Shown here one piece after another: positions 4,086 through 53,444 of a DNA stretch of 64,000 bases. The notes beneath the pieces are model-generated. The model saw only the letters and a program-made list of their open reading frames with translations. It had not been told where the DNA came from and searched no databases. Made by a program: the position numbers and the translations under genes. Each line of letters opens with the position of its first letter. Within the stretch, counting starts at the first letter, position 1. Origin of the DNA: Escherichia phage Bp7; the sequence record NC_019500.1; one strand, given 5' to 3'.

Positions 4086-4104
4086 GTTTACTGAGGAAAA
4101 TATT

Positions 4105-5064: not shown

Positions 5065-5142
5065 TTGCACAAAACAGTGTACAAGGTCTATAGGTGTGAT
5101 ACTATAGACCTATCAAAACAACAGAGTGAAATGGAGAATAAA

Positions 5143-9875: not shown

Positions 9876-10334
9876 ATGTCAGAAATTAATTCAGAAGTAT
9901 TCATCCGCCGCAACAAATTACGTCGTCAGTTCGAAACCGAATTCCGTGAACTGAATGCGTCCATCAAAAAAGCCGCCATTAAGAGCGGAGTCCCAGCCTT
10001 CTTTATTAAGTACTCTAATCACTTGTTGGACCGTGCTATCCAACGTGAAATCGACGAAAAATACGTTTTTGCTTTATTCAAGCAACTCCATAACCATGTT
10101 AAAGAAATTCATGAATTTTTAATCCAGGAACCTCTGCCTGATGTAGAATCCGAAATTGTCCCTGGTAAAGTGTATCGTCCATTGCGTCTCGAAATTACCG
10201 ATAAAACCTTATGGCTAGGTATGACAGTAGACCGTAAACATCCTGATAAAGGATATTCCCTTAAATGCCGTATGGCATTTGTTAACTCTAAACGTTTAGA
10301 AGGTAAAACCAGCACGAAAGTAATCTATCTTTAA
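9876..10334 (+). CDS. hypothetical protein (152 aa)
   Basis: ORF downstream of promoter with GGAG RBS. Confidence 0.55.
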   Translation: MSEINSEVFIRRNKLRRQFETEFRELNASIKKAAIKSGVPAFFIKYSNHLLDRAIQREIDEKYVFALFKQLHNHVKEIHEFLIQEPLPDVESEIVPGKVYRPLRLEITDKTLWLGMTVDRKHPDKGYSLKCRMAFVNSKRLEGKTSTKVIYL

Positions 10335-12662: not shown

Positions 12663-12941
12663 ATGGACCTAAATTCAAAGATTTTAATTCTAGCGTTCGC
12701 TGTGGCTATTTCTTATATTGTTCTTTCGCCTATCATGGATGATGTGGCTTACAAAAGAGAGATAGAGGTTGTAGCAGCGACGTATAATGCTAATAATAAA
12801 GAGTGTCCTAATAAAAATGGGATGGATTTAATTAAGGCCCATTATATGCTTTCCATTACCTCGCCTATACAGAGGAATTGGGTTGAATATAATTTTAACG
12901 ACGTGTTCTATTCTTATTGTCGTAAGCTTAAAAAGCTATAA
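12663..12941 (+). CDS. small membrane/secreted protein (92 aa)
   Basis: N-terminal hydrophobic helix; TATAAATA-like motif at its 3-prime end (12937-12944). Confidence 0.5.
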   Translation: MDLNSKILILAFAVAISYIVLSPIMDDVAYKREIEVVAATYNANNKECPNKNGMDLIKAHYMLSITSPIQRNWVEYNFNDVFYSYCRKLKKL

Positions 12942-17668: not shown

Positions 17669-17680
17669 GGATAAATTATG

Positions 17681-17733
17681 TTCGAACAATTGGTCCCGAA
17701 GTCGCATGCTCCCGGCCGCCATGGCCGCGGGAT
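17681..17733 (+). other. cloning-vector polylinker-like sequence (pGEM-T-type, T7-side arm)
   Basis: GTCGCATGCTCCCGGCCGCCATGGCCGCGGGATT (17700-17733) matches the recalled pGEM-T MCS up to the T-overhang site; upstream ~20 nt is a diverged ApaI/AatII region. Confidence 0.75.
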
Positions 17734-17745
17734 TATCGTGATGCC

Positions 17746-18030
17746 ATGAAACAGTCCGTCGAGGACTATGATAAAGAAGTTGTCGACGGATATACTAATA
17801 GAGTTTATAAAACTGAATGCGAAGAAGGAGACTACAGGAGATTGCTCTTGGCCGCGAAGACCCAGGCCTTAATAAATCTAGACCGCAAGCAGGTAAAGTT
17901 GGCAGGCGACTTCAGAGATAAGCAGCGCGCCATTCGTAGTGATTATCAAGAGCGTATCGCTCAACAAAGGAAAACTGTGACCCAATCAGCGTGGTTTAGT
18001 GGACAAGCAGGTGAAAAAAGTTTCTATTAG
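17746..18030 (+). CDS. hypothetical protein (94 aa) inside the vector-flanked segment
   Basis: ORF with noticeably higher GC than flanking phage DNA, no clear RBS; function unknown. Confidence 0.35.
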   Translation: MKQSVEDYDKEVVDGYTNRVYKTECEEGDYRRLLLAAKTQALINLDRKQVKLAGDFRDKQRAIRSDYQERIAQQRKTVTQSAWFSGQAGEKSFY

Positions 18031-18032
18031 TT

Positions 18033-18061
18033 GTTTACATCTCCAGTAGAAATGATACTAC
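18033..18061 (+). promoter_or_regulatory. early promoter (PeSL-type variant)
   Basis: GTTTAC, 17 nt, TACTAC; CTCCAGTAG/CTACTGGAG inverted repeat with compensatory changes. Confidence 0.45.
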
Positions 18062-18087
18062 AGACATATCAACTACTGGAGGTTATC

Positions 18088-18582
18088 ATGAACGCTAAAG
18101 ATATTTTTTCACTGATTAATTTCAACAACGGTAATTTCAAATCTGAAAAACAAAGCAAGTTCTTTAACGACGTTGCTTGTGGTAATGAGATTACTGTATC
18201 TGGAGGAGAGATTTACAAAAGCCGTTGGAACTGGATTGTTATCATCGATTCAGTTGGTATTGTAGAGCTCTATAAAAACACCAACAAAAAACGTACTCTT
18301 CACTGGAGTCGTGAAACCAATCAAGCTTATCAAGCTGAACGTAACAAACGTTTAATGCCTACCGAATCCGACCTGGCAAACGTTAAATCTGATATCGCTT
18401 ATTTCGATAATCTGATTGCTGAACAACAAGCTGTTATTGATAAGTTTGACGAAATCAAAGCTTGTAAAGAGATTCCTGAATTCATGCGGGAATCAGTAAA
18501 CGAACAGTACGCCCTCACTTCAGGTCGATCAATAGTGCGAACCCCTGCAAGTCGAACATCTGGGAGAGCTCCGATCGCGTAG
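18088..18582 (+). CDS. hypothetical protein (164 aa); 3-prime end runs into vector-like sequence
   Basis: ATG 18088 after GGAGG; last ~18 codons are encoded by polylinker-like sequence, so the native C-terminus is probably lost. Confidence 0.45.
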   Translation: MNAKDIFSLINFNNGNFKSEKQSKFFNDVACGNEITVSGGEIYKSRWNWIVIIDSVGIVELYKNTNKKRTLHWSRETNQAYQAERNKRLMPTESDLANVKSDIAYFDNLIAEQQAVIDKFDEIKACKEIPEFMRESVNEQYALTSGRSIVRTPASRTSGRAPIA

Positions 18583-18592
18583 TATGAAGAGC
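18528..18592 (+). other. cloning-vector polylinker-like sequence (pGEM-T-type, SP6-side arm, diverged)
   Basis: ATCAATAGTGCGAACCCCTGCAAGTCGAACATCTGGGAGAGCTCC... aligns to the recalled MCS at ~80 percent identity; SpeI/NotI/PstI/SalI/NdeI each lost by point changes. Confidence 0.65.
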
Positions 18593-18678
18593 GTTTAAAG
18601 ACGGTTCTCGCATAAACGCTTTATACCAAGGATGGTATAATGGTTCTAGGTTCTTAATTACTTACTGAGGAAATTATT

Positions 18679-19518
18679 ATGTCACAGGCAATTAATCAAA
18701 TTCGTTCTGAAGTTAAAAAAGTTGTTAAATTCGGACGTATTCCGAGTTCTAAAGAAGTGGTTGAAAAGGTTTTGGCCATGATGTGGGAAAAGTTTGAAGT
18801 TTGTATTTCTGTAGATGAATTCACTAAAATCTTTGACAAGACTAGGATGTTTACGTTAGAAGACCGAGTCATGAAATCTCTTCACAGGGCCGGTATGTTG
18901 ACTCGTGCTAACGCCAGAATTATTCTTAGAAATTATAACAAAGGCTATGACCTCTATGGTCGTTTAATCCCGGCGATGTCATTTGATGAAGTTGTTAAAG
19001 ACCTTCGTACTAACCAACGACGTTTACTAGCACTGGGTGCTCGTCTAGCTTTAGGTAAAGATAAGCAAATGCCATTTAAGACTAATGGTTCAGGCGATTG
19101 GATTATCTTTAATATTGTCAACCAACCAGGTAACGAAAACGAGTATCTTACTTCAACTTTTAGTGGTTGTCAATATGACAACTGGAAATTCCATCTTCGA
19201 TTGGCTTTGTCTGAACTCGAACGTAGCGGTATTCTTACCTTCGATAATGTTAATACCAGTACAGGCTGGCGTATTAAACTTGTTAAGCCAGGTAATGAAG
19301 TTAAGAGTCATTCAGAAGCTCCTAAACCGGAACCTGTACCAGTGCGCAGCAATGAGAAGCATCAAGCTCAAATCGAGTATTTTAGCAATTTGCTTACTTG
19401 CTTGAATGTTACAATTCAGCAACAAGATGATGAGATTTTCCGACTCTCTGGTCTGAATGCTAAAGCCAAGGCTGAACGCCAGAAATATATCGATATCCTA
19501 AATCTTCTTAAGGATTAA
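18679..19518 (+). CDS. hypothetical protein with C-terminal coiled coil (279 aa)
   Basis: ORF with TGAGGAAATTATT RBS module; C-terminal heptad-like region. Confidence 0.6.
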   Translation: MSQAINQIRSEVKKVVKFGRIPSSKEVVEKVLAMMWEKFEVCISVDEFTKIFDKTRMFTLEDRVMKSLHRAGMLTRANARIILRNYNKGYDLYGRLIPAMSFDEVVKDLRTNQRRLLALGARLALGKDKQMPFKTNGSGDWIIFNIVNQPGNENEYLTSTFSGCQYDNWKFHLRLALSELERSGILTFDNVNTSTGWRIKLVKPGNEVKSHSEAPKPEPVPVRSNEKHQAQIEYFSNLLTCLNVTIQQQDDEIFRLSGLNAKAKAERQKYIDILNLLKD

Positions 19519-19519
19519 T

Positions 19520-19708
19520 ATGGCTACTTTAATTATTGGTTCTATTTTTGGATACCTTGTGATAGGATTCATTACTACTGTATTAATCCACAAATTTGAC
19601 AGCTGTTTTGAAAAAGGTGATGAGTATGATGCAGTGTTCACTACTCTCGCCTGGCCTATATTCTGGGTTACAGGTATTGTTCTGGCTATAGTGTGTGCCT
19701 ATGGCTAA
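19520..19708 (+). CDS. small membrane protein (62 aa)
   Basis: Two hydrophobic helices. Confidence 0.5.
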   Translation: MATLIIGSIFGYLVIGFITTVLIHKFDSCFEKGDEYDAVFTTLAWPIFWVTGIVLAIVCAYG

Positions 19709-19737
19709 ATTCTATAAAAAATTATTTGGACTTTAAT

Positions 19738-20607
19738 ATGAACATTAAAACACGTAAAGAATATTCCCGATATGATTTTGGTGTAACCAAGCGTATCGCT
19801 ATCGATCGGCTGGCCGACTTCGGCCATATTTGTAATGGTAATTATACTTATGGTGTAGGTCGTAAAGGGACTTATATTAGTTCTTTGAACGATTATTGCC
19901 GTGGCCCAGCCAACCTGTTTGGTGTAACATTGCGAGCTAATATCAAAGACCTCTTGGCTACCGCAGGACGTATTTCTACGGTTCCTGTTAATATCAAGAA
20001 TATTAATTTTACGGCTCGTAACCTAGTCATTAATATTCTGAATGACGGCATTCAAGTTCGTTTCCGTCCTACCTCAAAAGGTAATAAGGCCCTTCGTGAA
20101 GCATTTGAAACCTTATTCAGGGAAGCAATGACTCGTATTAAGGCTGTAGAATCATATAAGGTTACAACAGATGAATATGCTGATTGTTCCGGACGGCCCG
20201 ATGCAGTGTATTTTAATGTTAAACTAACTCGTGAATATCTTTTGTCTTATGCCCCTTATCAATCCCAACAAAAGGAACCGGAAATGGAACGACGTATCTC
20301 TGCAGTATCATGTGACAGCGTAGGCCAGTATGCAGCCTATGACAGATTCAAAACCACGGCTGTACCGAGTCCATTCAATTCCGAACCGTATCATTGGAAA
20401 ATTAAACCTGATAATTCTTTGGTTGTTACTAACCCTACGATGAAACCCATCGAGAAGTATCATGAGGACCACCTCCAGGAATCAATCCACCGTTTAAACG
20501 GTCAGATTGAAGATGAGAAAAAGAGTATCCAAGACGTATTGATTCGCATCAAGAACATGGAAATCCAGCGTGACAAGCTTAGCGCGGCAGTATTAGCTCT
20601 AAAATAA
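19738..20607 (+). CDS. hypothetical protein with C-terminal coiled coil (289 aa)
   Basis: ATG 19738 in frame with track ORF 19693; C-terminal heptad-like region. Confidence 0.55.
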   Translation: MNIKTRKEYSRYDFGVTKRIAIDRLADFGHICNGNYTYGVGRKGTYISSLNDYCRGPANLFGVTLRANIKDLLATAGRISTVPVNIKNINFTARNLVINILNDGIQVRFRPTSKGNKALREAFETLFREAMTRIKAVESYKVTTDEYADCSGRPDAVYFNVKLTREYLLSYAPYQSQQKEPEMERRISAVSCDSVGQYAAYDRFKTTAVPSPFNSEPYHWKIKPDNSLVVTNPTMKPIEKYHEDHLQESIHRLNGQIEDEKKSIQDVLIRIKNMEIQRDKLSAAVLALK

Positions 20608-20608
20608 T

Positions 20609-20638
20609 GTTTACATCCAAGGACGGATGGAGTATAAT
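20609..20638 (+). promoter_or_regulatory. early sigma70-type promoter
   Basis: GTTTAC 20609-20614, 18 nt, TATAAT 20633-20638; CATCC/GGATG inverted repeat in spacer. Confidence 0.45.
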
Positions 20639-20665
20639 CTTTTTAAATCTACTGAGGAGAATATC

Positions 20666-21676
20666 ATGACTCGTACTGAATACATCAATGCCTTTACTAC
20701 GTATATCACTACCAACACCCCTCCGTTAACCCCATACGAGGTAATAGTTTCTAATATCAATAAATGGGTCGACCAAATTGATGATGCATTATCGCGCTGT
20801 TTCAAAGCCGAAATCGAAAAGATTGCAGGCCGTTTGTGCATTCATGATATCATTAAAACATTTAAAGGTTCTCGACTGCTTTCGCGACTGGTCAATAAGG
20901 ACATCCTTTCAGAGTTCGGCAAAGAGAAATATCCGGGTTCTAGCCATGTTGTTAGCTACAAATGGTTTGGTGATACCATAAAAGGTTATGTCAAAATTAA
21001 AGGTATGGACCCTAGTAGTTTATTTCCGCAACGTTGGGTTAGCGAATTCAAGGCTAACTCTGCATTAATTCTCAAAGCGGCCTCTAAAACTATAGTTTCC
21101 GGTGATTGTCGTACTATTCACCCTATGGCTAATTGCATGATTAAAACAAATAGTTATAAAGGAAAAGCTATTATTTCTGTTATTTGGTCGCCTAATAGGA
21201 AACCTAAAGATGATGCGGAAGTTGTAAAGTATCAAGATATTGCTTACGATACCTTGAATACTATCGAACAAGCTTTAGCTCTGATGGATACCGTAGAGAA
21301 ATATGAGACCCAAGAAGTTAAACACCACTTAGGCTGGAAAGGATATGAAGTCTTAGTAACAGTCCGTGAAATCAAATGTACCGTTCCAAAAACTGACGCT
21401 GAAATTTACCAAGAAAAATGTGAGGAAATTGTGAACACTGATAAAGAGCCTGCTACATTAGAAGACTTGATTAACGACTTGAACAGCCCTATCATGGCCC
21501 CTACACCAATTACTAAATCCAAGTTACCGGAAATAGTGGCCTTAGAAAAAGCGTATAAAGATGCCCTGGCTATTAACAAAAAACTGACTGGACAATATAC
21601 TGCTGCCAAGAAACTTTGGGAAGAGTCTACCAATCGTTTAGACCGTCTTGAACAGGCTCTGGAGCTGCTGAAATGA
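20666..21676 (+). CDS. hypothetical protein with C-terminal coiled coil (336 aa)
   Basis: ATG 20666 after TGAGGAGAATATC; C-terminal heptad-like region. Confidence 0.55.
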   Translation: MTRTEYINAFTTYITTNTPPLTPYEVIVSNINKWVDQIDDALSRCFKAEIEKIAGRLCIHDIIKTFKGSRLLSRLVNKDILSEFGKEKYPGSSHVVSYKWFGDTIKGYVKIKGMDPSSLFPQRWVSEFKANSALILKAASKTIVSGDCRTIHPMANCMIKTNSYKGKAIISVIWSPNRKPKDDAEVVKYQDIAYDTLNTIEQALALMDTVEKYETQEVKHHLGWKGYEVLVTVREIKCTVPKTDAEIYQEKCEEIVNTDKEPATLEDLINDLNSPIMAPTPITKSKLPEIVALEKAYKDALAINKKLTGQYTAAKKLWEESTNRLDRLEQALELLK

Positions 21677-21984
21677 AACAACGTTTAGCTGAAGATATTG
21701 CTTCAGCATCTAATACCGGCTTATTGAAATTTATTAAAGCCGCTGATGTTGAAGTTGAATTGGTTGGTAAAATTCATGGTTGTGATGATTATGGTGATGC
21801 CGTTAATTGGGATGCTGTAATGGCTATGGTCGCACGACGAGAACAAGCTTCTAAGAATGTTCCTAATTGTCCTAAGTGCGGCACAGAACAGGTTCAGTTG
21901 GTTCAATGGCGCCATAATCCGCTTCAGTATAAATGCCGCCATTGCAAACACCGATTTGAGCGAGAAGAAAATGGCAAAGTGTAA
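21673..21984 (+). CDS. zinc-ribbon protein (103 aa)
   Basis: CPKCG...CRHCKH four-Cys motif. Confidence 0.5.
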
Positions 21985-22207
21985 AGAATATGTAGAGGCT
22001 GCCGATAAGGCAGTCCGCGAACTTACTCTAGCTTATTATAAAGAGCACGGTAAATTTCCGGACAGTTATTCAGTATTGAAATCTGCTTTAACTCGCTCGT
22101 ATAATAATATACTATCTGATGTGTATAATTTAAAATATGAGCACATGGAAAAATACGGAACAGAACTCGACCGTTCTGAAGCATTCAAACAAATATTAGG
22201 AATTTAA
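21971..22207 (+). CDS. hypothetical protein (78 aa)
   Basis: ATG 21971 overlapping upstream gene end. Confidence 0.45.
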
Positions 22208-22208
22208 A

Positions 22209-22472
22209 ATGTTTAAAGTTTATGGTTATGATTCAAATATTCACCGTTGTGTTTTCTGTGATAATGCCAAACGACTGCTTGATGTTAAGAAACAACCTTA
22301 CGAATTCATTAACGTGATGCCGGAAAAAGGTGTATTTGATGATGAGAAGATTGCCGAACTCCTGGCTGCTCTTGGACGCGAATCTCAGGTAGGTTTGACT
22401 ATGCCTCAGGTATTTGCTCCGGACGGAACTTCTATTGGTGGCTTTGACCAACTGCGAGCGTATTTCAAATGA
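22209..22472 (+). CDS. nrdC: thioredoxin/glutaredoxin NrdC
   Basis: 87 aa; CVFC redox motif; strong similarity to T4 NrdC. Confidence 0.9.
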   Translation: MFKVYGYDSNIHRCVFCDNAKRLLDVKKQPYEFINVMPEKGVFDDEKIAELLAALGRESQVGLTMPQVFAPDGTSIGGFDQLRAYFK

Positions 22473-22630
22473 TTGAACTATTGTTGAGTGTTTTGTATCT
22501 TATCATCGGTATTGGTTATGCTAAGACCCTAGCTAAATTAGATGATTCAGGTGACTTTTGTTGGTGGCTGACGTCTATGATTTGTTGGCCTTTATTTCTG
22601 GTTGGTGCTTCATTCTGGAACTTTAAATGA
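22469..22630 (+). CDS. small membrane protein (53 aa)
   Basis: ATG overlaps nrdC stop; hydrophobic; below the 60-aa cutoff of the ORF track. Confidence 0.4.
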   Translation: MIELLLSVLYLIIGIGYAKTLAKLDDSGDFCWWLTSMICWPLFLVGASFWNFK

Positions 22631-22935
22631 TTGAATTAAATGAACAGACTATTTTTCTGGGTGATGGTACCGAAGATGACCTGGAATATAAACTATACGA
22701 ATATATGGTTTGGCTGGCTAAAGCAGAAGGTATAGACTTTGCTGTATCTCACCCGTATGGCGAGAACACCGTTGTAATCGGTGGCACTGCTTATGAAGTC
22801 CAATGGCAATACGTTGGCCTTGAATCTGAAGAATTTGAAGAAGATGAACACGGTGATTGGCATCCAGTCGGTCCTTGGTACTGGGAACACGGTGGACCTG
22901 ATTTTGAAGTAAGTAGTTGGTGGTGTGACCGTTAA
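22627..22935 (+). CDS. hypothetical acidic Trp-rich protein (102 aa)
   Basis: ORF with overlapping start. Confidence 0.5.
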   Translation: MIELNEQTIFLGDGTEDDLEYKLYEYMVWLAKAEGIDFAVSHPYGENTVVIGGTAYEVQWQYVGLESEEFEEDEHGDWHPVGPWYWEHGGPDFEVSSWWCDR

Positions 22936-22981
22936 GCCATGGTATGTCGCTCGGTGGAAAACTACCGAGCCAGAGGAACCT

Positions 22982-23011
22982 GTTTACAACGATTCCGAAA
23001 TAGAGTATAAT
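22982..23011 (+). promoter_or_regulatory. early sigma70-type promoter
   Basis: GTTTAC, 18 nt, TATAAT. Confidence 0.45.
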
Positions 23012-23051
23012 GAACCTTCAAACAATGATTTAATCGATATGGAGTTTGGAT

Positions 23052-23225
23052 ATGAGTACCAAAATTGAAGTTGGCCGTCATAAAGGCCGTCTGATTGAAC
23101 ATTCGCTTTACGAGTTGTCGGATTCGGGTTCTTTACCTGACTTAGAATCCGATTTGATTAAAGCTGCAGCCGATTATATTCATTGGCTTGAAGCTCAACT
23201 TCGCTTTTCCGATGAGGCCTTCTGA
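23052..23225 (+). CDS. small protein (57 aa)
   Basis: ATG after GGAG; below track cutoff. Confidence 0.35.
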   Translation: MSTKIEVGRHKGRLIEHSLYELSDSGSLPDLESDLIKAAADYIHWLEAQLRFSDEAF

Positions 23226-23527
23226 TGAATTTATTTGAATTTGAAGGTAAAACTGTTCGTATTACTGAAGAAGATGTCGACCATTATGTTGACTGGCCTG
23301 AATTAAATGGTAATCGTGGTTTTGAGTCAGGTGAGCTCTGTGAAGGCGCTGAAGTTAAAATCTTGAAGGTGGAGATTTCTCCATGGGGCGACCCTGAAAT
23401 CATCGGCGTAACTGCTATCGAATTCAATGGTAAGGTATACGAATACACTAAAGAAATGTTTGAAGATACTAAAGCTTCATTCTGGTGTTTTTGGACTAAC
23501 GATGATAATGAATTTGAGGTCGCATGA
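23225..23527 (+). CDS. hypothetical protein (100 aa)
   Basis: ORF with overlapping start. Confidence 0.5.
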   Translation: MNLFEFEGKTVRITEEDVDHYVDWPELNGNRGFESGELCEGAEVKILKVEISPWGDPEIIGVTAIEFNGKVYEYTKEMFEDTKASFWCFWTNDDNEFEVA

Positions 23528-23709
23528 AAACTGTATTAGTCTATACCGAAAAATTAAATGGCGGTAAGGTCTGGAAACTTCTTATCAAAGGAAGTCCAAC
23601 TGACCAGTTTATGGCCACCTGTGTAGGATTATACACTCGTCCTACTAAAAAGATGATTCGTCAATTTAAACGGTTGCATCGCTCGTTTTATAGTACATTT
23701 GAAAAATAA
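23524..23709 (+). CDS. hypothetical basic protein (61 aa)
   Basis: ORF with overlapping start. Confidence 0.45.
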   Translation: MKTVLVYTEKLNGGKVWKLLIKGSPTDQFMATCVGLYTRPTKKMIRQFKRLHRSFYSTFEK

Positions 23710-23747
23710 TAAATACCTATATCTAATTATTATTAAAGGTATAGGTC

Positions 23748-24563
23748 ATGCAAGATTTCGGACATTGGGCGGTATTTGAAGAAACCGATATTAAAAACCA
23801 TATTGGATTTGTATACGTAATCACTTTTGAAGATGGCAAAAAATATGTAGGTGCTAAAAAGATTTGGAAACGAATTAAAGCTGCACCTTGCACATTTAAA
23901 CGCGGCCCTAAAAAAGGATTTGAAGAATCTGATTGGAAAACCTATACCTCATCATCTAATGAACTAAACGCAATGATAGAAAAGGGTATAAGTCCTAAAG
24001 AGTATCTTATTGTAGGATGGTATCCTACTTGGGGTAAAACTCTTATGGCAGAAATGGAAATGCAATTAGCCAATGATGTTTTACGAGACCCTATGTGGCT
24101 TAACAAGCAAATTGGCGGACATTTCAACCCTAACTGCTTTGACGATTTAACCGAAGATGATATTGCAAGATGGATGGAATTTGATAAAGGGAACGAACAT
24201 GTTTCCTGGCCTATGATGTACAAAATAGGTCAGAAAACCAAATATGTTAAACCTGACGAAGTTGGCGAGTATATTAAATCCGGGTGGCAATTTGGTCGTT
24301 CTAAAACAGAAAAACATTCTGTTACCTATAATTGCTCTAAATTTACTATATGGGACTATCAAGAAAATAAAGCAGTGGAAGTTCTAAATCAAAATGAGTT
24401 TGCTCGTAATAATGATTTAAGTAGTAACCATCTAACTAGACTACTTCAAGGAACTCTCGATCTTATTAAAGATCGCTGGGGACTTCCACCAGATATTGCT
24501 CGTCAGCGTTATAAATTTCAGACGTTTCTTCAGGAACAAAATTTTTATCTAATTCCGAGTTAG
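23748..24563 (+). CDS. GIY-YIG-like homing endonuclease candidate (271 aa)
   Basis: N-terminal GFVYVITFEDGKKYVGAKK resembles the GIY-x10-YIG motif. Confidence 0.45.
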   Translation: MQDFGHWAVFEETDIKNHIGFVYVITFEDGKKYVGAKKIWKRIKAAPCTFKRGPKKGFEESDWKTYTSSSNELNAMIEKGISPKEYLIVGWYPTWGKTLMAEMEMQLANDVLRDPMWLNKQIGGHFNPNCFDDLTEDDIARWMEFDKGNEHVSWPMMYKIGQKTKYVKPDEVGEYIKSGWQFGRSKTEKHSVTYNCSKFTIWDYQENKAVEVLNQNEFARNNDLSSNHLTRLLQGTLDLIKDRWGLPPDIARQRYKFQTFLQEQNFYLIPS

Positions 24564-24932
24564 AAGAATTTTACGGTATGACACGCGGTCAGGCTAACAA
24601 AGCCGTTAAAGATGGAAGAGCCGTTAAATTGGTAGTCGAAAGCAAAGAAGACCACATTAAAAACTTGGCTCTATCGAATTGGTAAAACCGAAAAGACAAA
24701 AGTTACGTCTCAAGTAATGCTTAACAGTTTTAAAGATATAGTTAATCCTATGACCGATACCGAAAAATCAGAAATGATTGAATGGTTGGAAAGTTATATA
24801 ACTTATTTGAAATCTTAATGAGGAAATCGCTTAAATGATTAATTTTTATGGCTTAACCGAATCTATGAATGATATTATCCGGCGCATGGGTGTTGAGTAT
24901 CCTGCTCAATGGTTATTTGTTGTAACTAATAC

Positions 24933-25160
24933 ATGGACTATCGTATGAATAAATTTCGTAATGCTGTTTCTGATATCCTGGCTAATATAACATTGGTTCT
25001 GTTTATCGTATGCCTTTTAATCCTGGCTATTCCGTTTGGATTGCTGTTCATGATTATTGGTGCATTGAGTACTGAAAAGGGTCTTGAAGGGGCCGAGTTC
25101 GACAAACGAATCCAGGCTGTTCATAGTGTTATTGCAAAAATGATGAAGGTGAAAGAATGA
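24933..25160 (+). CDS. small membrane protein (75 aa)
   Basis: Hydrophobic helix. Confidence 0.5.
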   Translation: MDYRMNKFRNAVSDILANITLVLFIVCLLILAIPFGLLFMIIGALSTEKGLEGAEFDKRIQAVHSVIAKMMKVKE

Positions 25161-25453
25161 AACGTTTTGAAGAGTATGTAGCTTTGAATTGGACCGCTTG
25201 GGAAAAGTTCGGTGATGACTGGTACTTCCATGACTGTGACCTGAACCCTGAATTCTTTAAAGGTAAGGAAGAAGACCTTAAAGACATCTATGCTCTGTCA
25301 GAGATTCATGGTATTAAACCTACTGTCTACTTCTCTTTTGATGACACAGGTTTCCTTGTACAGATTTACGTCCCATACAGAACTAATGAAGACGAAGTTC
25401 TAAAAACCTGGGACTACCAAGGAGTTATTTCCTGTGGACCAAAAGTTAACTAA
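25157..25453 (+). CDS. hypothetical protein (98 aa)
   Basis: ORF with overlapping start. Confidence 0.5.
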   Translation: MKRFEEYVALNWTAWEKFGDDWYFHDCDLNPEFFKGKEEDLKDIYALSEIHGIKPTVYFSFDDTGFLVQIYVPYRTNEDEVLKTWDYQGVISCGPKVN

Positions 25454-25751
25454 AATTGAGATTTACGGTATCCCTGAGACAGTCATGCGCTGTCCAGGGT
25501 GCATTGCTGTTCTATCGCTCCTAAATTCCCTTTCTATCCCACATACTTTCTATCCTGTGATTAATCAGACGCCGTCAGGCGCAGTATATGACAAGCCTCT
25601 TATAGTATCATTGGCCAAACGTGCAGGCTTCAAGAGCTTAGCGATACGCTATCCTGTCATATTTGTCGATAATAAGAAAATAGAAAATATTCCTGCCTTC
25701 AAATCGCTTTTGATTGAACTTGGTTATGACCGAGATTTAATTGAAGATTAG
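25434..25751 (+). CDS. glutaredoxin/thioredoxin-fold protein candidate (105 aa)
   Basis: CPGC motif near N-terminus in a beta-alpha context. Confidence 0.4.
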   Translation: MDQKLTKIEIYGIPETVMRCPGCIAVLSLLNSLSIPHTFYPVINQTPSGAVYDKPLIVSLAKRAGFKSLAIRYPVIFVDNKKIENIPAFKSLLIELGYDRDLIED

Positions 25752-25752
25752 T

Positions 25753-25781
25753 GTTTACTTCCTCTCCTCACGTGTTATAGT
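25753..25781 (+). promoter_or_regulatory. early promoter (PeSL-type)
   Basis: GTTTAC, 17 nt, TATAGT; CTCCTCACGTG/CACATGAGGAG inverted repeat. Confidence 0.45.
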
Positions 25782-25810
25782 CTATCCTATCAACACATGA
25801 GGAGAACATT

Positions 25811-25993
25811 ATGACTATCCAAGATAAAGAAATTAAAGCCGACCAGTATTATTTGGTAAATGGGCGTGCGGTTCGTGTAATTGCTGCTAGCGATTCAGAC
25901 GTATGGTATCGTGTACTGGACCATAGAAATATTCCAATGATGGTATGTGACCGTAGCGTGTTTTGTTCAATAGCTAAGGAAATCAAATTATGA
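25811..25993 (+). CDS. hypothetical protein (60 aa)
   Basis: ORF with GAGGAG RBS. Confidence 0.5.
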   Translation: MTIQDKEIKADQYYLVNGRAVRVIAASDSDVWYRVLDHRNIPMMVCDRSVFCSIAKEIKL

Positions 25994-26244
25994 GCCTGAA
26001 ATTACATTCAATGAAAAATGTCGTCACCCTTAATCTGGATGATGAGCGCCTGATTTTTCTCACCGTCACTGATAAGAATATTGAAATCGCCAACGGCCCG
26101 AAAACTTATTGCTGTCCTGTTAAGAATTGGAAACGTGTATCATTTCTTACTCTGGCCGAACGCCTGAAAGATATTAAGTTAGATTTGGATGTCAAAGATG
26201 TCCAATACATTAAAAATCTTATTGGATACAAACTGCTGAGGTAA
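25990..26244 (+). CDS. hypothetical protein (84 aa)
   Basis: ORF with overlapping start. Confidence 0.5.
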   Translation: MSLKLHSMKNVVTLNLDDERLIFLTVTDKNIEIANGPKTYCCPVKNWKRVSFLTLAERLKDIKLDLDVKDVQYIKNLIGYKLLR

Positions 26245-26246
26245 CT

Positions 26247-26510
26247 ATGGGTAAAACTATTCGTCGTAAAGAATTGTCTGTAAAAGATTTTTATTATTCC
26301 GGACGTCGTAAAGCACCTGACGGCGTAAGTCAGGAACTGGTTGAAGAAAATATCTTCCGTTCCGACAAGTGGAAACGTATGCGCGGTGTTGATTCTGAAG
26401 TTAAGAATGAAATGAATCGCCAACTTCGTAAAGAAGTGAGAAAGCTGAAAAAGATGTTTACAACGACGATGAACCTGATTACAATACTTCTCATCAAGTT
26501 GCAAACGTAA
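26247..26510 (+). CDS. hypothetical basic protein (87 aa)
   Basis: ORF with RBS. Confidence 0.5.
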   Translation: MGKTIRRKELSVKDFYYSGRRKAPDGVSQELVEENIFRSDKWKRMRGVDSEVKNEMNRQLRKEVRKLKKMFTTTMNLITILLIKLQT

Positions 26511-26545
26511 ATCAAACGAGTGCTATCGTTACAGCTGAGGAAAAT

Positions 26546-26677
26546 ATGAATATTAAACGAATGCTTTTTAAGCAAGGGTTATATACTTTAAATGTTACTC
26601 CAAAAGGCGATACAACCAAGTGGTCAGTAAATGACTGGGTTAAATTCATTGATGAAAACGGTAACTGGAAAATTTAA
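26546..26677 (+). CDS. small protein (43 aa)
   Basis: ATG after TGAGGAAAAT; below track cutoff. Confidence 0.35.
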   Translation: MNIKRMLFKQGLYTLNVTPKGDTTKWSVNDWVKFIDENGNWKI

Positions 26678-26878
26678 ATGAATCCTGAATCTAAATTATC
26701 ACAGCGAATTGCTGAAGCTCGTCGTCAGTTCTTTGAAAATATGATAGCCCAAGGTATTGATGACGAAGTTTTTCTAAACTGGTTTTGGAATCACAAATAT
26801 TCAAGTTGCTCGGGTGCTTTGTTAATTTCCGCCGGAATGATGTATGAAGGTTGGAAAGGTGCCAAAGCACAAAAATAG
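26678..26878 (+). CDS. hypothetical protein (66 aa)
   Basis: ORF with overlapping start. Confidence 0.45.
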   Translation: MNPESKLSQRIAEARRQFFENMIAQGIDDEVFLNWFWNHKYSSCSGALLISAGMMYEGWKGAKAQK

Positions 26879-26907
26879 TTTACAAACTCTTGGGACCGGA
26901 GTATAAT
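26878..26907 (+). promoter_or_regulatory. early sigma70-type promoter
   Basis: GTTTAC, 18 nt, TATAAT; GGACC/GGTCC inverted repeat flanks the -10. Confidence 0.45.
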
Positions 26908-26945
26908 GGTCCTACGGATTATAAATTTTAACTGAGGAAATTATT

Positions 26946-27275
26946 ATGTCACAAGCTATTAAAAACGTACTGAACTCTTTCGCTTTCGATAAAGTAAATG
27001 AACTGATGAATACAGGTTTTGTGACTCCTGAAATTCTCGACCAATGGGTTGCTGAACTGTTACCAATCATGCACTCTAAAGACCAGAAAATTGGTAAGAA
27101 TGGTATTCGTGAAATTCTGGTTCAATATATCCTCGATGAATTCGATGTCGCTGCCTTTGGTGTAGAATCTAAAGCTTGGGCCCCTGGTGAAATCTCTGAT
27201 AAAACTATCCGTCGTATGAAGAACCAGCGTAAGAAAAAATTCGTTGACCTGAAAATTGTTAAGGCAGCGAAATGA
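26946..27275 (+). CDS. hypothetical protein (109 aa)
   Basis: Shares a 23-nt RBS/start module with ORF 18679 (both begin MSQAI). Confidence 0.55.
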   Translation: MSQAIKNVLNSFAFDKVNELMNTGFVTPEILDQWVAELLPIMHSKDQKIGKNGIREILVQYILDEFDVAAFGVESKAWAPGEISDKTIRRMKNQRKKKFVDLKIVKAAK

Positions 27276-36863: not shown

Positions 36864-37226
36864 ATGATTGAAATTACTCTGAAACAACCTGAAGACTTCT
36901 TGAAAGTGAAAGAGACCCTAACTCGTATGGGTATCGCTAATAATAAAGAAAAGAAACTATATCAATCCTGCCACATTCTGCAAAAGCAAGGGCTGTATTA
37001 TATAGTCCACTTTAAAGAGATGTTACGTATGGATGGTCGCCAAGTTGATATCGATGGTGAAGACTATCAACGTCGAGATTCAATTGCCCAGCTTCTTAAG
37101 GAGTGGGGACTGATTGATATTGTAGATGAATCTGAACTGTTCGAAATCACCAATAACTTCCGTGTCATTTCCTTTAAGCAGAAAAATGACTGGGAACTAC
37201 TGTCTAAGTACACCATTGGTAATTAA
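36864..37226 (+). CDS. regA: translational repressor RegA
   Basis: 120 aa, between 62 and 43 as in T4. Confidence 0.8.
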   Translation: MIEITLKQPEDFLKVKETLTRMGIANNKEKKLYQSCHILQKQGLYYIVHFKEMLRMDGRQVDIDGEDYQRRDSIAQLLKEWGLIDIVDESELFEITNNFRVISFKQKNDWELLSKYTIGN

Positions 37227-53210: not shown

Positions 53211-53444
53211 ATGGGTGGTTTCGTTAATATCAAAACCTTTACGCATCCGGCTGGTGAAGGTAAAGAAGTTAAAGGTGTTGAAGTATCTGTTCCGTTTGAA
53301 ATCTATTCAAACGAGCATCGTATTGCGAATGCACACTATCAGACATTTCCTTCTGAAAAGGCGGCATACACTACTGTAGTAACTGATGCAGCCGATTGGC
53401 GAACTAAGAACGCGGCGATGTTTACGCCTACCCCAGTAGTTTAA
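53211..53444 (+). CDS. soc: small outer capsid protein Soc
   Basis: 77 aa; VNIKTF...AHYQTFPSEKAAY matches T4 Soc. Confidence 0.85.
   Translation: MGGFVNIKTFTHPAGEGKEVKGVEVSVPFEIYSNEHRIANAHYQTFPSEKAAYTTVVTDAADWRTKNAAMFTPTPVV

Follow-up and report, generated by a model that had tools for sequence, protein, structure and literature searches.

Two unrelated genes with one initiation region

The 23-nt sequence ACTGAGGAAATTATTATGTCACA occurs exactly twice, both times on the + strand, in the 64,000-nt stretch of the Escherichia phage Bp7 genome (NC_019500.1) that was analyzed here and is referred to as the window. Both copies are translation-initiation regions (TIRs), the first belonging to a homolog of T4 nrdC.6 and the second to a homolog of T4 55.2. 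Bp7 is a T4-like myovirus of the genus Dhakavirus (JS98/IME08 group), and the + strand of the window has a T4-like gene order (tk ... nrdC.11 ... nrdC ... 55 ... 45/44/62/regA/43) in which the nrdC-55 region is mosaic among relatives. The closest record, vB_EcoM_IME540 (hereafter IME540), is 97-98% identical over both 23-mer sites. The two starts comprise the following features, the similar segments being designated islands A and B.

18635-18650, + strand: island A, copy 1, GTATAATGGTTCTAGG; -10 element plus the first transcribed bases
18664-18686, + strand: 23-mer, copy 1; initiation region of the nrdC.6 homolog, with the Shine-Dalgarno (SD) sequence GAGGA at 18667-18671, a 7-nt A/T spacer, ATG at 18679-18681, then TCACA
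18664-18695, + strand: island B, copy 1; the 23-mer plus nine bases, 30/32 identical to 26931-26962
18679-19518, + strand: nrdC.6 homolog, 279 aa, beginning MSQAINQIRSEV; phrog_2257, with PF26899 on homologs, and named as in the annotation of IME08 and JS98
26901-26917, + strand: island A, copy 2, GTATAATGGTCCTACGG; -10 element plus the first transcribed bases
26931-26953, + strand: 23-mer, copy 2; initiation region of the 55.2 homolog, with SD GAGGA at 26934-26938 and ATG at 26946-26948
26931-26962, + strand: island B, copy 2; the extended similar block
26946-27275, + strand: 55.2 homolog, 109 aa, beginning MSQAIKNVLNSF; DUF7570, phrog_1475

An initial reading made from the sequence alone had reported the repeat, and an exact-match search confirmed it at its full length. 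No further copy was found in the window even when three mismatches were allowed, and none in 100 dinucleotide shuffles. The -10 element that this sequence-only reading had placed ahead of each copy was likewise recovered, as GTATAATGG is present in the window only at 18635 and 26901, 28-29 nt ahead of each 23-mer. The repeat is also not a property of most gene starts: among the approximately 3,400 pairs formed by 83 crude + strand starts of the window, the nrdC.6/55.2 pair ranks first (23/23, followed by 21/23 for the runner-up), and the 16-mer core TGAGGAAATTATTATG is confined to these two starts within the window. A related initiation class, GAGGAAAWTWHTATG, is additionally found at 4093 and 5358.

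A repeat-family search of the window placed the pair in family D12 (35/41 nt), and a gapped alignment of the copies extends from the -10 box to approximately codon 6-10. However, this alignment is interrupted, and the similarity consists of two islands parted by 13 unrelated nucleotides. The similarity of the proximal leader (island A) is significant (P = 0.002), and its motif is found again at other promoters of IME540. No significant similarity between the copies was detected in the 13-nt distal leader separating the islands (P = 0.66) or in the 40 nt upstream of the -10 element (P = 0.2), and codons 7-30 are unrelated (20/72 identical). Within island B, both mismatches lie at synonymous third-codon positions (CAG/CAA and GCA/GCT).

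The encoded proteins begin MSQAIN (nrdC.6 homolog) and MSQAIK (55.2 homolog), and the earlier description of them as two unrelated proteins starting MSQAI holds for the translations of the open reading frames (ORFs) as well as in BLASTP, which returned no alignment between them. Paralogy is ruled out by this null result together with the different PHROG and Pfam families; nrdC.6 and 55.2 are unrelated prereplicative genes. T4 gp55.2 inhibits E. coli topoisomerase I and is toxic upon over-expression (PMC4396842).

Both starts are of long standing. In Marfa-, Jiaoda-, Karam-, Gelderland-, Winkler- and Kanagawavirus, gp55.2 begins MSQAIKNVLNSF with free synonymous variation, and the corresponding initiation region is already ACTGAGGAAATTAaTATG-like; the MSQAIKN start was found in at least seven genera. 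Codons 2-4 of 55.2 (SQA) are changed only in Mosig-, Tequatro- and Gaprivervirus (STK, TIQ and TAS, respectively), with the rest of the protein conserved. NrdC.6 is restricted to Tequatro-, Mosig-, Dhaka- and Gaprivervirus-like phages, and its N-terminus falls into two types among 103 homolog clusters, MSQAIN[EQ]IRSEV and MSVVINNVNAVI. It reads MSQAIN in Dhaka- and Gaprivervirus and MSVVIN or MSVAIN in Tequatrovirus (MSVVIN in T4). On this distribution, neither start was acquired recently, and both predate the genus. A donation of the nrdC.6 start to 55.2 in the Dhakavirus ancestor, as considered from T4, Mosig- and Gaprivervirus, was rejected when six more genera showed MSQAIKN and its TIR to be ancestral in 55.2.

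The exact 23-mer pair is a signature of Dhakavirus: in a search of 2.9 million viral contigs of IMG/VR, it was confined to 6 Dhakavirus genomes, each of which has two copies. Scanning IMG/VR with a degenerate SD+MSQAI pattern gave matches ahead of the gp55.2 and NrdC.6 families only, and a widely portable module was therefore rejected. The 23-mer does not vary among the Dhakavirus genomes seen, and the adjoining upstream 55.2 leader is polymorphic for A/T indels that extend up to ACTGAGG. On the 3' side, nrdC.6 of JS98 has CAA, which gives a 26-nt identity between the copies there, and 55.2 of VR5 has GCA ATC beside the 23-mer. Such polymorphisms are not common to both copies and vary independently among Dhakaviruses.

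Ongoing or recent short-patch gene conversion, which would keep the 23 nt identical within Dhakavirus, would account for an invariant 23-mer next to a polymorphic leader and for its confinement to this genus. It would also account for the ATT-ending spacer, which equals that of nrdC.6 and is unique to Dhakavirus among the sampled 55.2 orthologs (the others having AAT, GCT, ACT, AAC, ATC or TGT). However, only 4/36 positions, one of them in the spacer, separate the Dhakavirus 55.2 TIR from the Jiaodavirus ortholog, as compared to 5/36 that separate it from the TIR of nrdC.6, so that conversion is not needed to explain it. Furthermore, the synonymous sites just 3' of the 23-mer differ between the copies and share no polymorphism, the identical stretch does not run through to the other similar island, and a 23-mer without variation does not allow concerted evolution to be demonstrated. 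We therefore regard conversion as improbable. The contiguous, lineage-specific identity at neutral sites expected of a recent segmental duplication or conversion tract was not found between the copies, since the identity is split into islands, adjacent synonymous sites differ, and the starts are common to other genera.

Promoters, vector arms and the interval between the copies

Each 23-mer lies behind a promoter of its own, and the first promoter lies close to a segment of cloning-vector sequence. The features concerned are:

17688-17733, + strand: left arm of a pGEM-T-type polylinker, 96% identical; takes the place of native sequence immediately behind the start of the orf85/'thioredoxin' homolog
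18528-18592, + strand: right arm of a pGEM-T-type polylinker, 80% identical; overwrites the 3' end of the nrdC.8 homolog
18614-18648, + strand: copy 1 promoter; MotA-box-like AAACGCTTTA at 18614-18623, 12-nt spacer, -10 element TATAAT at 18636-18641, predicted transcription start near A18648
26879-26907, + strand: copy 2 promoter; sigma70 early-type TTTACA-17-TATAAT, 11/12 match
26892-26913, + strand: hairpin GGGACC/GGTCCT, 6 bp, around the -10 element of the 55.2 promoter; identified by covariation and of the stem-loop type described below

Middle promoters of T4 carry a MotA box, (a/t)(a/t)(a/t)TGCTTtA, centred at -30 and located 12 +/- 1 bp from TAtaaT, and they have no -35 element. The box, the 12-nt spacer and TATAAT are all present at copy 1, with the box-like element deviating once from the consensus (C for T), and a sigma70 scan of this promoter did not find a -35 element. 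The upstream sequence, CGCATAAACGCTTTATACCAAGGATGGTATAATGGTTCTA, is near-identical to that upstream of nrdC.7 in T4 and JEP6. T4 PnrdC.7 is a mapped MotA-dependent middle promoter with its start site at 53325, 7 nt past the -10 element (PMC2988021, Table 1). The copy 1 promoter is thus the ortholog of T4 PnrdC.7, and it would be active in Bp7 as a MotA-dependent middle promoter. Whereas the T4 promoter serves nrdC.7 and then nrdC.6, the genomes sampled from Dhaka-, Gapriver- and Mosigvirus lack nrdC.7, and in these three genera the promoter lies immediately ahead of nrdC.6. An 8-bp DNA hairpin, TTATACCA/TGGTATAA (18621-18640, z = -2.0), overlaps the -10 element, and the native stop codon TAA (18613-18615) of the upstream gene lies at the 5' edge of the MotA-box-like element. 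As a separate observation, a 27-nt near-copy (25/27) of the -10 element and initial transcribed region of copy 1 (ATGGTATAATGGTTTTAGGTTCTTTAT) is located on the minus strand of IME540 (145232-145258), in the gap that separates the tail sheath gene from the late gene following it, and on the opposite strand to both.

At copy 2, the TAG stop codon of the 55.3 homolog (26876-26878) abuts the -35 element, and the promoter is kept in Mosig-, Marfa- and Dhakavirus. By itself, thermodynamics supports the promoter hairpins weakly, and the 55.2 hairpin needed the support of covariation: pairing is 100% across 8 distinct sequences (belonging to four genera and one unclassified IMG/VR lineage), with compensatory changes in 4/6 pairs and a covariation of 0.83 as compared to 0.33 in shuffles (0/500). 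T4 has a terminator-like hairpin at the position where the sampled Dhaka-, Mosig-, Gapriver- and Marfaviruses carry the promoter with its TATAAT -10 element.

This arrangement resembles the promoter-early stem-loop (PeSL) cassettes of T4-like phages, which consist of an upstream stop codon, sigma70 -35 and -10 elements, a stem-loop often lying over the -10 element, and an SD sequence with start codon (PMC2839356, PMC4122927). PeSLs are intergenic, occur in hyperplastic regions ahead of genes of unknown function, and have been proposed as substrates for modular shuffling (Arbiol et al. 2010, PMC2839356; Comeau et al. 2014, PMC4122927). Every part of the cassette is present at the 55.2 copy, including the covarying hairpin, and its promoter and leader have a second genomic copy, as seen in IME540; the 55.2 promoter is of the sigma70 early type and PeSL-like, with a predicted activity to match. 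Both copies of the 23-mer are intergenic with an upstream stop at the 5' edge, both have a stem-loop overlapping the promoter (the 6-bp covarying helix at copy 2 and the 8-bp hairpin at copy 1), and both end in an SD sequence and start codon. However, the sigma70 -35/-10 pair of copy 2 is absent from copy 1, where a MotA-type middle promoter without a -35 element takes the place of the early promoter. Moreover, the similarity between the copies is limited to islands of 16-17 and 32 nt, and neither the approximately 100-bp conservation nor the indel association of PeSLs was seen between them. Since the promoters have separate orthologs and belong to different classes, the two starts do not represent one duplicated module of promoter, leader and start. 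The proposal of such a module in the sequence-only reading is contradicted further by the unrelated 13-nt leader segment and by starts that are older than the genus. Instead, the 23-mer is an old, conserved translation signal standing behind two kinds of promoter, and not a recently copied mobile module.

A 55.2 query matches three places in each Dhakavirus genome. A third copy inside the window was rejected, as the third place lies outside it (12816-12868 of IME540, minus strand), upstream of the gene in the pseT.1 position, and shares the promoter, leader and SD sequence but not the coding start. This is a true second copy of the 55.2 promoter-leader-SD segment (86% over 57 nt) and shows a compensatory stem change from GGGACC/GGTCC to GGGAGC/GCTCC. 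The annotated start of the gene in the pseT.1 position of IME540 (12854) lies inside this promoter, and translation probably begins at the ATG at 12818 instead. Seven further early-promoter cassettes of approximately 63 nt each (GTTTACATCTCCTGTAG..TGATACTATAGACCTATCAACTACAGGAG; repeat families D1-D3) are located at 5071, 7840, 9813, 13734, 18027, 48417 and 56447 of the window. In most of them, the two arms of an inverted repeat lie in the -35/-10 spacer and in the SD-bearing region, and this looks like the main PeSL family of the genome.

The polylinker arms have their matches in a bla plasmid of 3 kb and at the end of a clone record of phage phi-8. Both replace native sequence of similar length, and their flanks are identical to IME540 and IME08, which, aligned across the site, have native sequence in place of the vector patch. 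Over the right-arm segment with its short flanks, 31 bases match the vector, 32 the phage, 38 both and 4 neither. Such a per-base mixture of vector and phage in place of native sequence is the signature of untrimmed reads, and the arms are an assembly artefact from untrimmed reads of a T/A-cloned PCR product with a 794-nt insert (17734-18527). The artefact shifts the reading frame of the orf85 homolog (start at 17678) and truncates the nrdC.8 homolog, which ends at TAG (18580-18582) in place of TAA (18613-18615). The corruption of two genes by untrimmed pGEM-T arms matters to users of the genome record.

The first copy of the repeat had been said to abut this right arm directly, which was thought possibly relevant to how the junction formed. 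The arm itself is real, but it ends at 18592, and 71 nt of native promoter and leader separate it from the 23-mer. This proximity is what a tie between the repeat and the vector junction, either as an artefact or as a junction-promoting site, would have in its favor. However, 34 phage records (including many GenBank/RefSeq duplicates of the same genome) carry the 91 nt from 18625 to 18715 at 100% identity, both copies of the 23-mer are present in all Dhakavirus genomes, IME540 and IME08 included without any vector patch, and the base mixture within the arms carries the mark of untrimmed reads. The chance of such a tie is negligible, and a role of the repeat in forming the junction was not borne out.

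The 23-mers are direct repeats, 8,267 bp apart, for which inversion is not expected. Deletions between short direct repeats are known in T4 from the classical rII deletion work, and a rare 8,267-bp deletion could in principle fuse the copy 1 promoter to 55.2. No deletion variant was found, as all 40 listed genomes (nrdC.6-site query at >= 98.9% identity) and all 6 Dhakaviruses of IMG/VR keep two copies; the nrdC.6-site query matched 51 extra places among 136 records. Likewise, no indel or mini-circle involving the two 23-mer sites was seen in about 50 related genomes. Thus, the suggestion that the repeat is a ready substrate for homologous recombination is weak, given an exact block of 23 nt as compared to the approximately 100 bp of conservation that the PeSL recombination model needs (PMC2839356, PMC4122927).

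The interval contains nrdC.5-to-nrdC.1-type genes, thioredoxin-like genes, a Pin-like gene, an ORF resembling homing endonucleases, and 55.x genes. In IME540, its deletion would probably be harmful, because the interval there contains the endonuclease VII gene. Within 23730-24819 of the window, the 157-aa endonuclease VII (gene 49) homolog of IME540 is replaced by the homing-endonuclease-like ORF of 271 aa (23748-24563, phrog_7363), an arrangement common to at least seven other Dhakaviruses, and tblastn did not find a gene 49 homolog anywhere in the 64-kb window. Other short direct repeats of the window are 74-88% identical and 129-628 bp apart (60827-60870/61455-61498, 62680-62718/62809-62847 and 32611-32642/32875-32906; families D9, D14 and D19), and these may be internal repeats or tandem paralogs.

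Candidate control by RegA and predicted escape from RegB

The predicted leaders of both transcripts are approximately 30 nt long. Folding of leader and start gives -3.8 kcal/mol for nrdC.6 and -5.3 kcal/mol for 55.2, which is less stable than 192/200 shuffles for the former and 188/200 for the latter (z = +1.55 and +1.44), and the ribosome-binding sites are therefore unstructured. The translational repressor RegA is encoded in the window (36864-37223, identified by tblastn and 99% identical to the translational repressor of IME540), and the regB gene is located at 9876-10331. In T4, RegA operators are known for gene 44, rIIB and dexA, and a consensus, aaAAUUGUUAUGUAA, has been derived by SELEX (PMC3014915).

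The Bp7 sequence AAAUUAUUAUGUCA fits this consensus at 12/14 positions. Genome-wide statistics were based on 185 crude SD+ATG starts of the complete IME540 genome, among which nrdC.6 and 55.2 are the sole starts scoring 9/12. Known targets score 7 (rIIB and 56) or 6 (44 and 45), which places them in the upper tail of a distribution with a mode of 4. The predicted RegA site of both starts is GAGGAAAUUAUUAUGUCACA, and the TIR of Dhakavirus gene 44, CTGAGGAAATTAATATG, is one base off the shared core. Like the T4 operators, the 23-mer is A/U-rich and unstructured and has a 5' A tract overlapping the AUG, and the phage encodes RegA. However, the T4 orthologs of nrdC.6 and 55.2 match more weakly, and the consensus is loose.

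For RegB, the strong-site consensus in early initiation regions is GG*AGRAYARAA (PMC3014915). Four gene starts on the + strand of the window (5133, 13787, 48466 and 59868) fit this consensus exactly, as against none on the - strand. Their presence indicates that the initiation regions of this genome fall into regulatory classes. The 23-mer carries GAGGAAA (17 occurrences on the + strand of the window, 0 on the - strand) and lacks the GGAG motif of RegB. It thus belongs to a different sequence-defined class from the RegB-sensitive starts, one predicted to escape RegB.

Selection or exchange as a possible source of the shared start

Taken together, the account that we favor, at somewhat better than even confidence, is that the 23-mer represents a shared translation-initiation signal of a RegB-resistant and probably RegA-repressible class that is kept invariant by selection. 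Under this account, nrdC.6 and 55.2 would each have been inherited vertically with a promoter of their own, the former being transcribed from the PnrdC.7 ortholog and the latter from the sigma70 early-type promoter within its PeSL-like hairpin, and the leaders of approximately 30 nt would keep the ribosome-binding sites open. The identity would result from a shared initiation class (GAGGAAAWTWWTATG: GAGGA, 7-nt A/U spacer, AUG, UCA CA) joined to long-standing MSQAI starts, with purifying selection on the initiation signal holding the 23 nt invariant. Efficient initiation and shared post-transcriptional control are the likely common function.

Several points weigh against this account. The SELEX consensus was obtained with T4 RegA and is readily fitted by A/U-rich TIRs, the T4 orthologs of both genes are poorer matches to it, and no report of RegA regulation was found for nrdC.6 or 55.2; the study of gp55.2 mentions neither promoters nor Shine-Dalgarno sequences nor RegA (PMC4396842). 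In addition, when TIRs and coding starts of IME540 were re-paired as a null, the joint identity of 27/30 for nrdC.6/55.2 had a P of about 0.005, and the occurrence of three pairs with at least 25/30 joint identity had a P of about 0.0004. TIR and first codons thus co-occur beyond what independent constraint would give, an excess that favors either a constraint spanning both parts or an exchange of start regions. Binding of the ribosome or of RegA also leaves the identical 5-residue N-termini unexplained. The joint statistic was used alone, because the coding identity by itself (21/30, codons 2-11) is no outlier in an A+T-rich genome and is also reached by several unrelated pairs without TIR similarity.

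Pure coincidence of two strong ribosome-binding sites in such a genome could draw on the strong consensus of T4-like gene starts. Exact matches spanning the ATG are even longer in two other pairs of IME540 (28 and 25 nt), and 5 N-terminal residues are common to three pairs. However, 0.02 pairs of IME540 would be expected to agree at all 15 nt upstream and at all of the first 8 nt of the ORF, no shuffle matches, and the permutation result given above points the same way. Chance is therefore unlikely, and we rate it slightly below gene conversion.

An older event is the main rival source of the identity, though a less likely one. Before the split of Tequatro-, Dhaka- and Gaprivervirus, the SD region of nrdC.6 and its first 5-8 codons may have come from 55.2, or the two genes may have received them from a common cassette. 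Recombination in the short homology of initiation regions or in PeSL-type cassettes would have been the route, followed by divergence except where selection holds. In addition to the joint identities, which speak for this history, the three pairs concerned are all formed by unrelated proteins: nrdC.6/55.2, the starts at 189 and 25811 of the window, and those at 22280 and 51869 (cef) of IME540. The gp55.2 start is far more widespread than NrdC.6, which suggests a polarity, and the NrdC.6 lineages match gp55.2 (MSQAIKNV) in different ways, through Q3 in Dhaka- and Gaprivervirus and through N7-V8 in Tequatrovirus. The nrdC.7 indel lies exactly at the nrdC.6 start, where ATTATTATG is common to T4 nrdC.7 and Dhakavirus nrdC.6. 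Shuffling through PeSLs has been documented for T4-like phages (PMC2839356, PMC4122927), and the 55.2 promoter-leader segment has a true second copy in IME540 (12816-12868).

Nevertheless, SD+MSQAI precedes only the two protein families in IMG/VR, and the upstream leader and promoter are not homologous between the copies. Furthermore, of the three 5-residue N-terminal coincidences within one genome, two are without TIR similarity, which indicates a strong N-terminal composition bias, and the polarity argument rests on few residues. The module shuffling that the initial reading had envisaged therefore stands in part: shuffling of start regions in general has permutation support and the precedent of PeSLs, but any event at nrdC.6 and 55.2 would be ancient.

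The second of these pairs illustrates the pattern. At 176-216 and 25798-25838 of the window, two unrelated ORFs (132 and 60 aa) share the SD region and nine codons (36/41 nt; MNIEDKEMQ/MTIQDKEIK), each behind its own GTTTAC-type early promoter. We tentatively suggest that the initiation region and the first 5-9 codons may act as an exchangeable start module in T4-like phages, one that is picked up or retained by unrelated ORFs when recombination occurs at gene boundaries and that sorts accessory genes into RegA- or RegB-type regulons. If so, a Dhakavirus genome would hold at least three such pairs, nrdC.6/55.2 among them. The excess of unrelated pairs sharing TIR and codons hints that gene-start recombination leaves N-terminal stubs, which would extend PeSL shuffling into coding sequence.

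With regard to the phage itself, the two 23-mers are ordinary expression signals, and nothing about them speaks for engineering, recent duplication or instability. If the assignment of these signals to a RegA-repressible class, as in the account favored here, is true, nrdC.6 and 55.2 would join the RegA translational regulon, whose approximately 30 targets are poorly defined by sequence.

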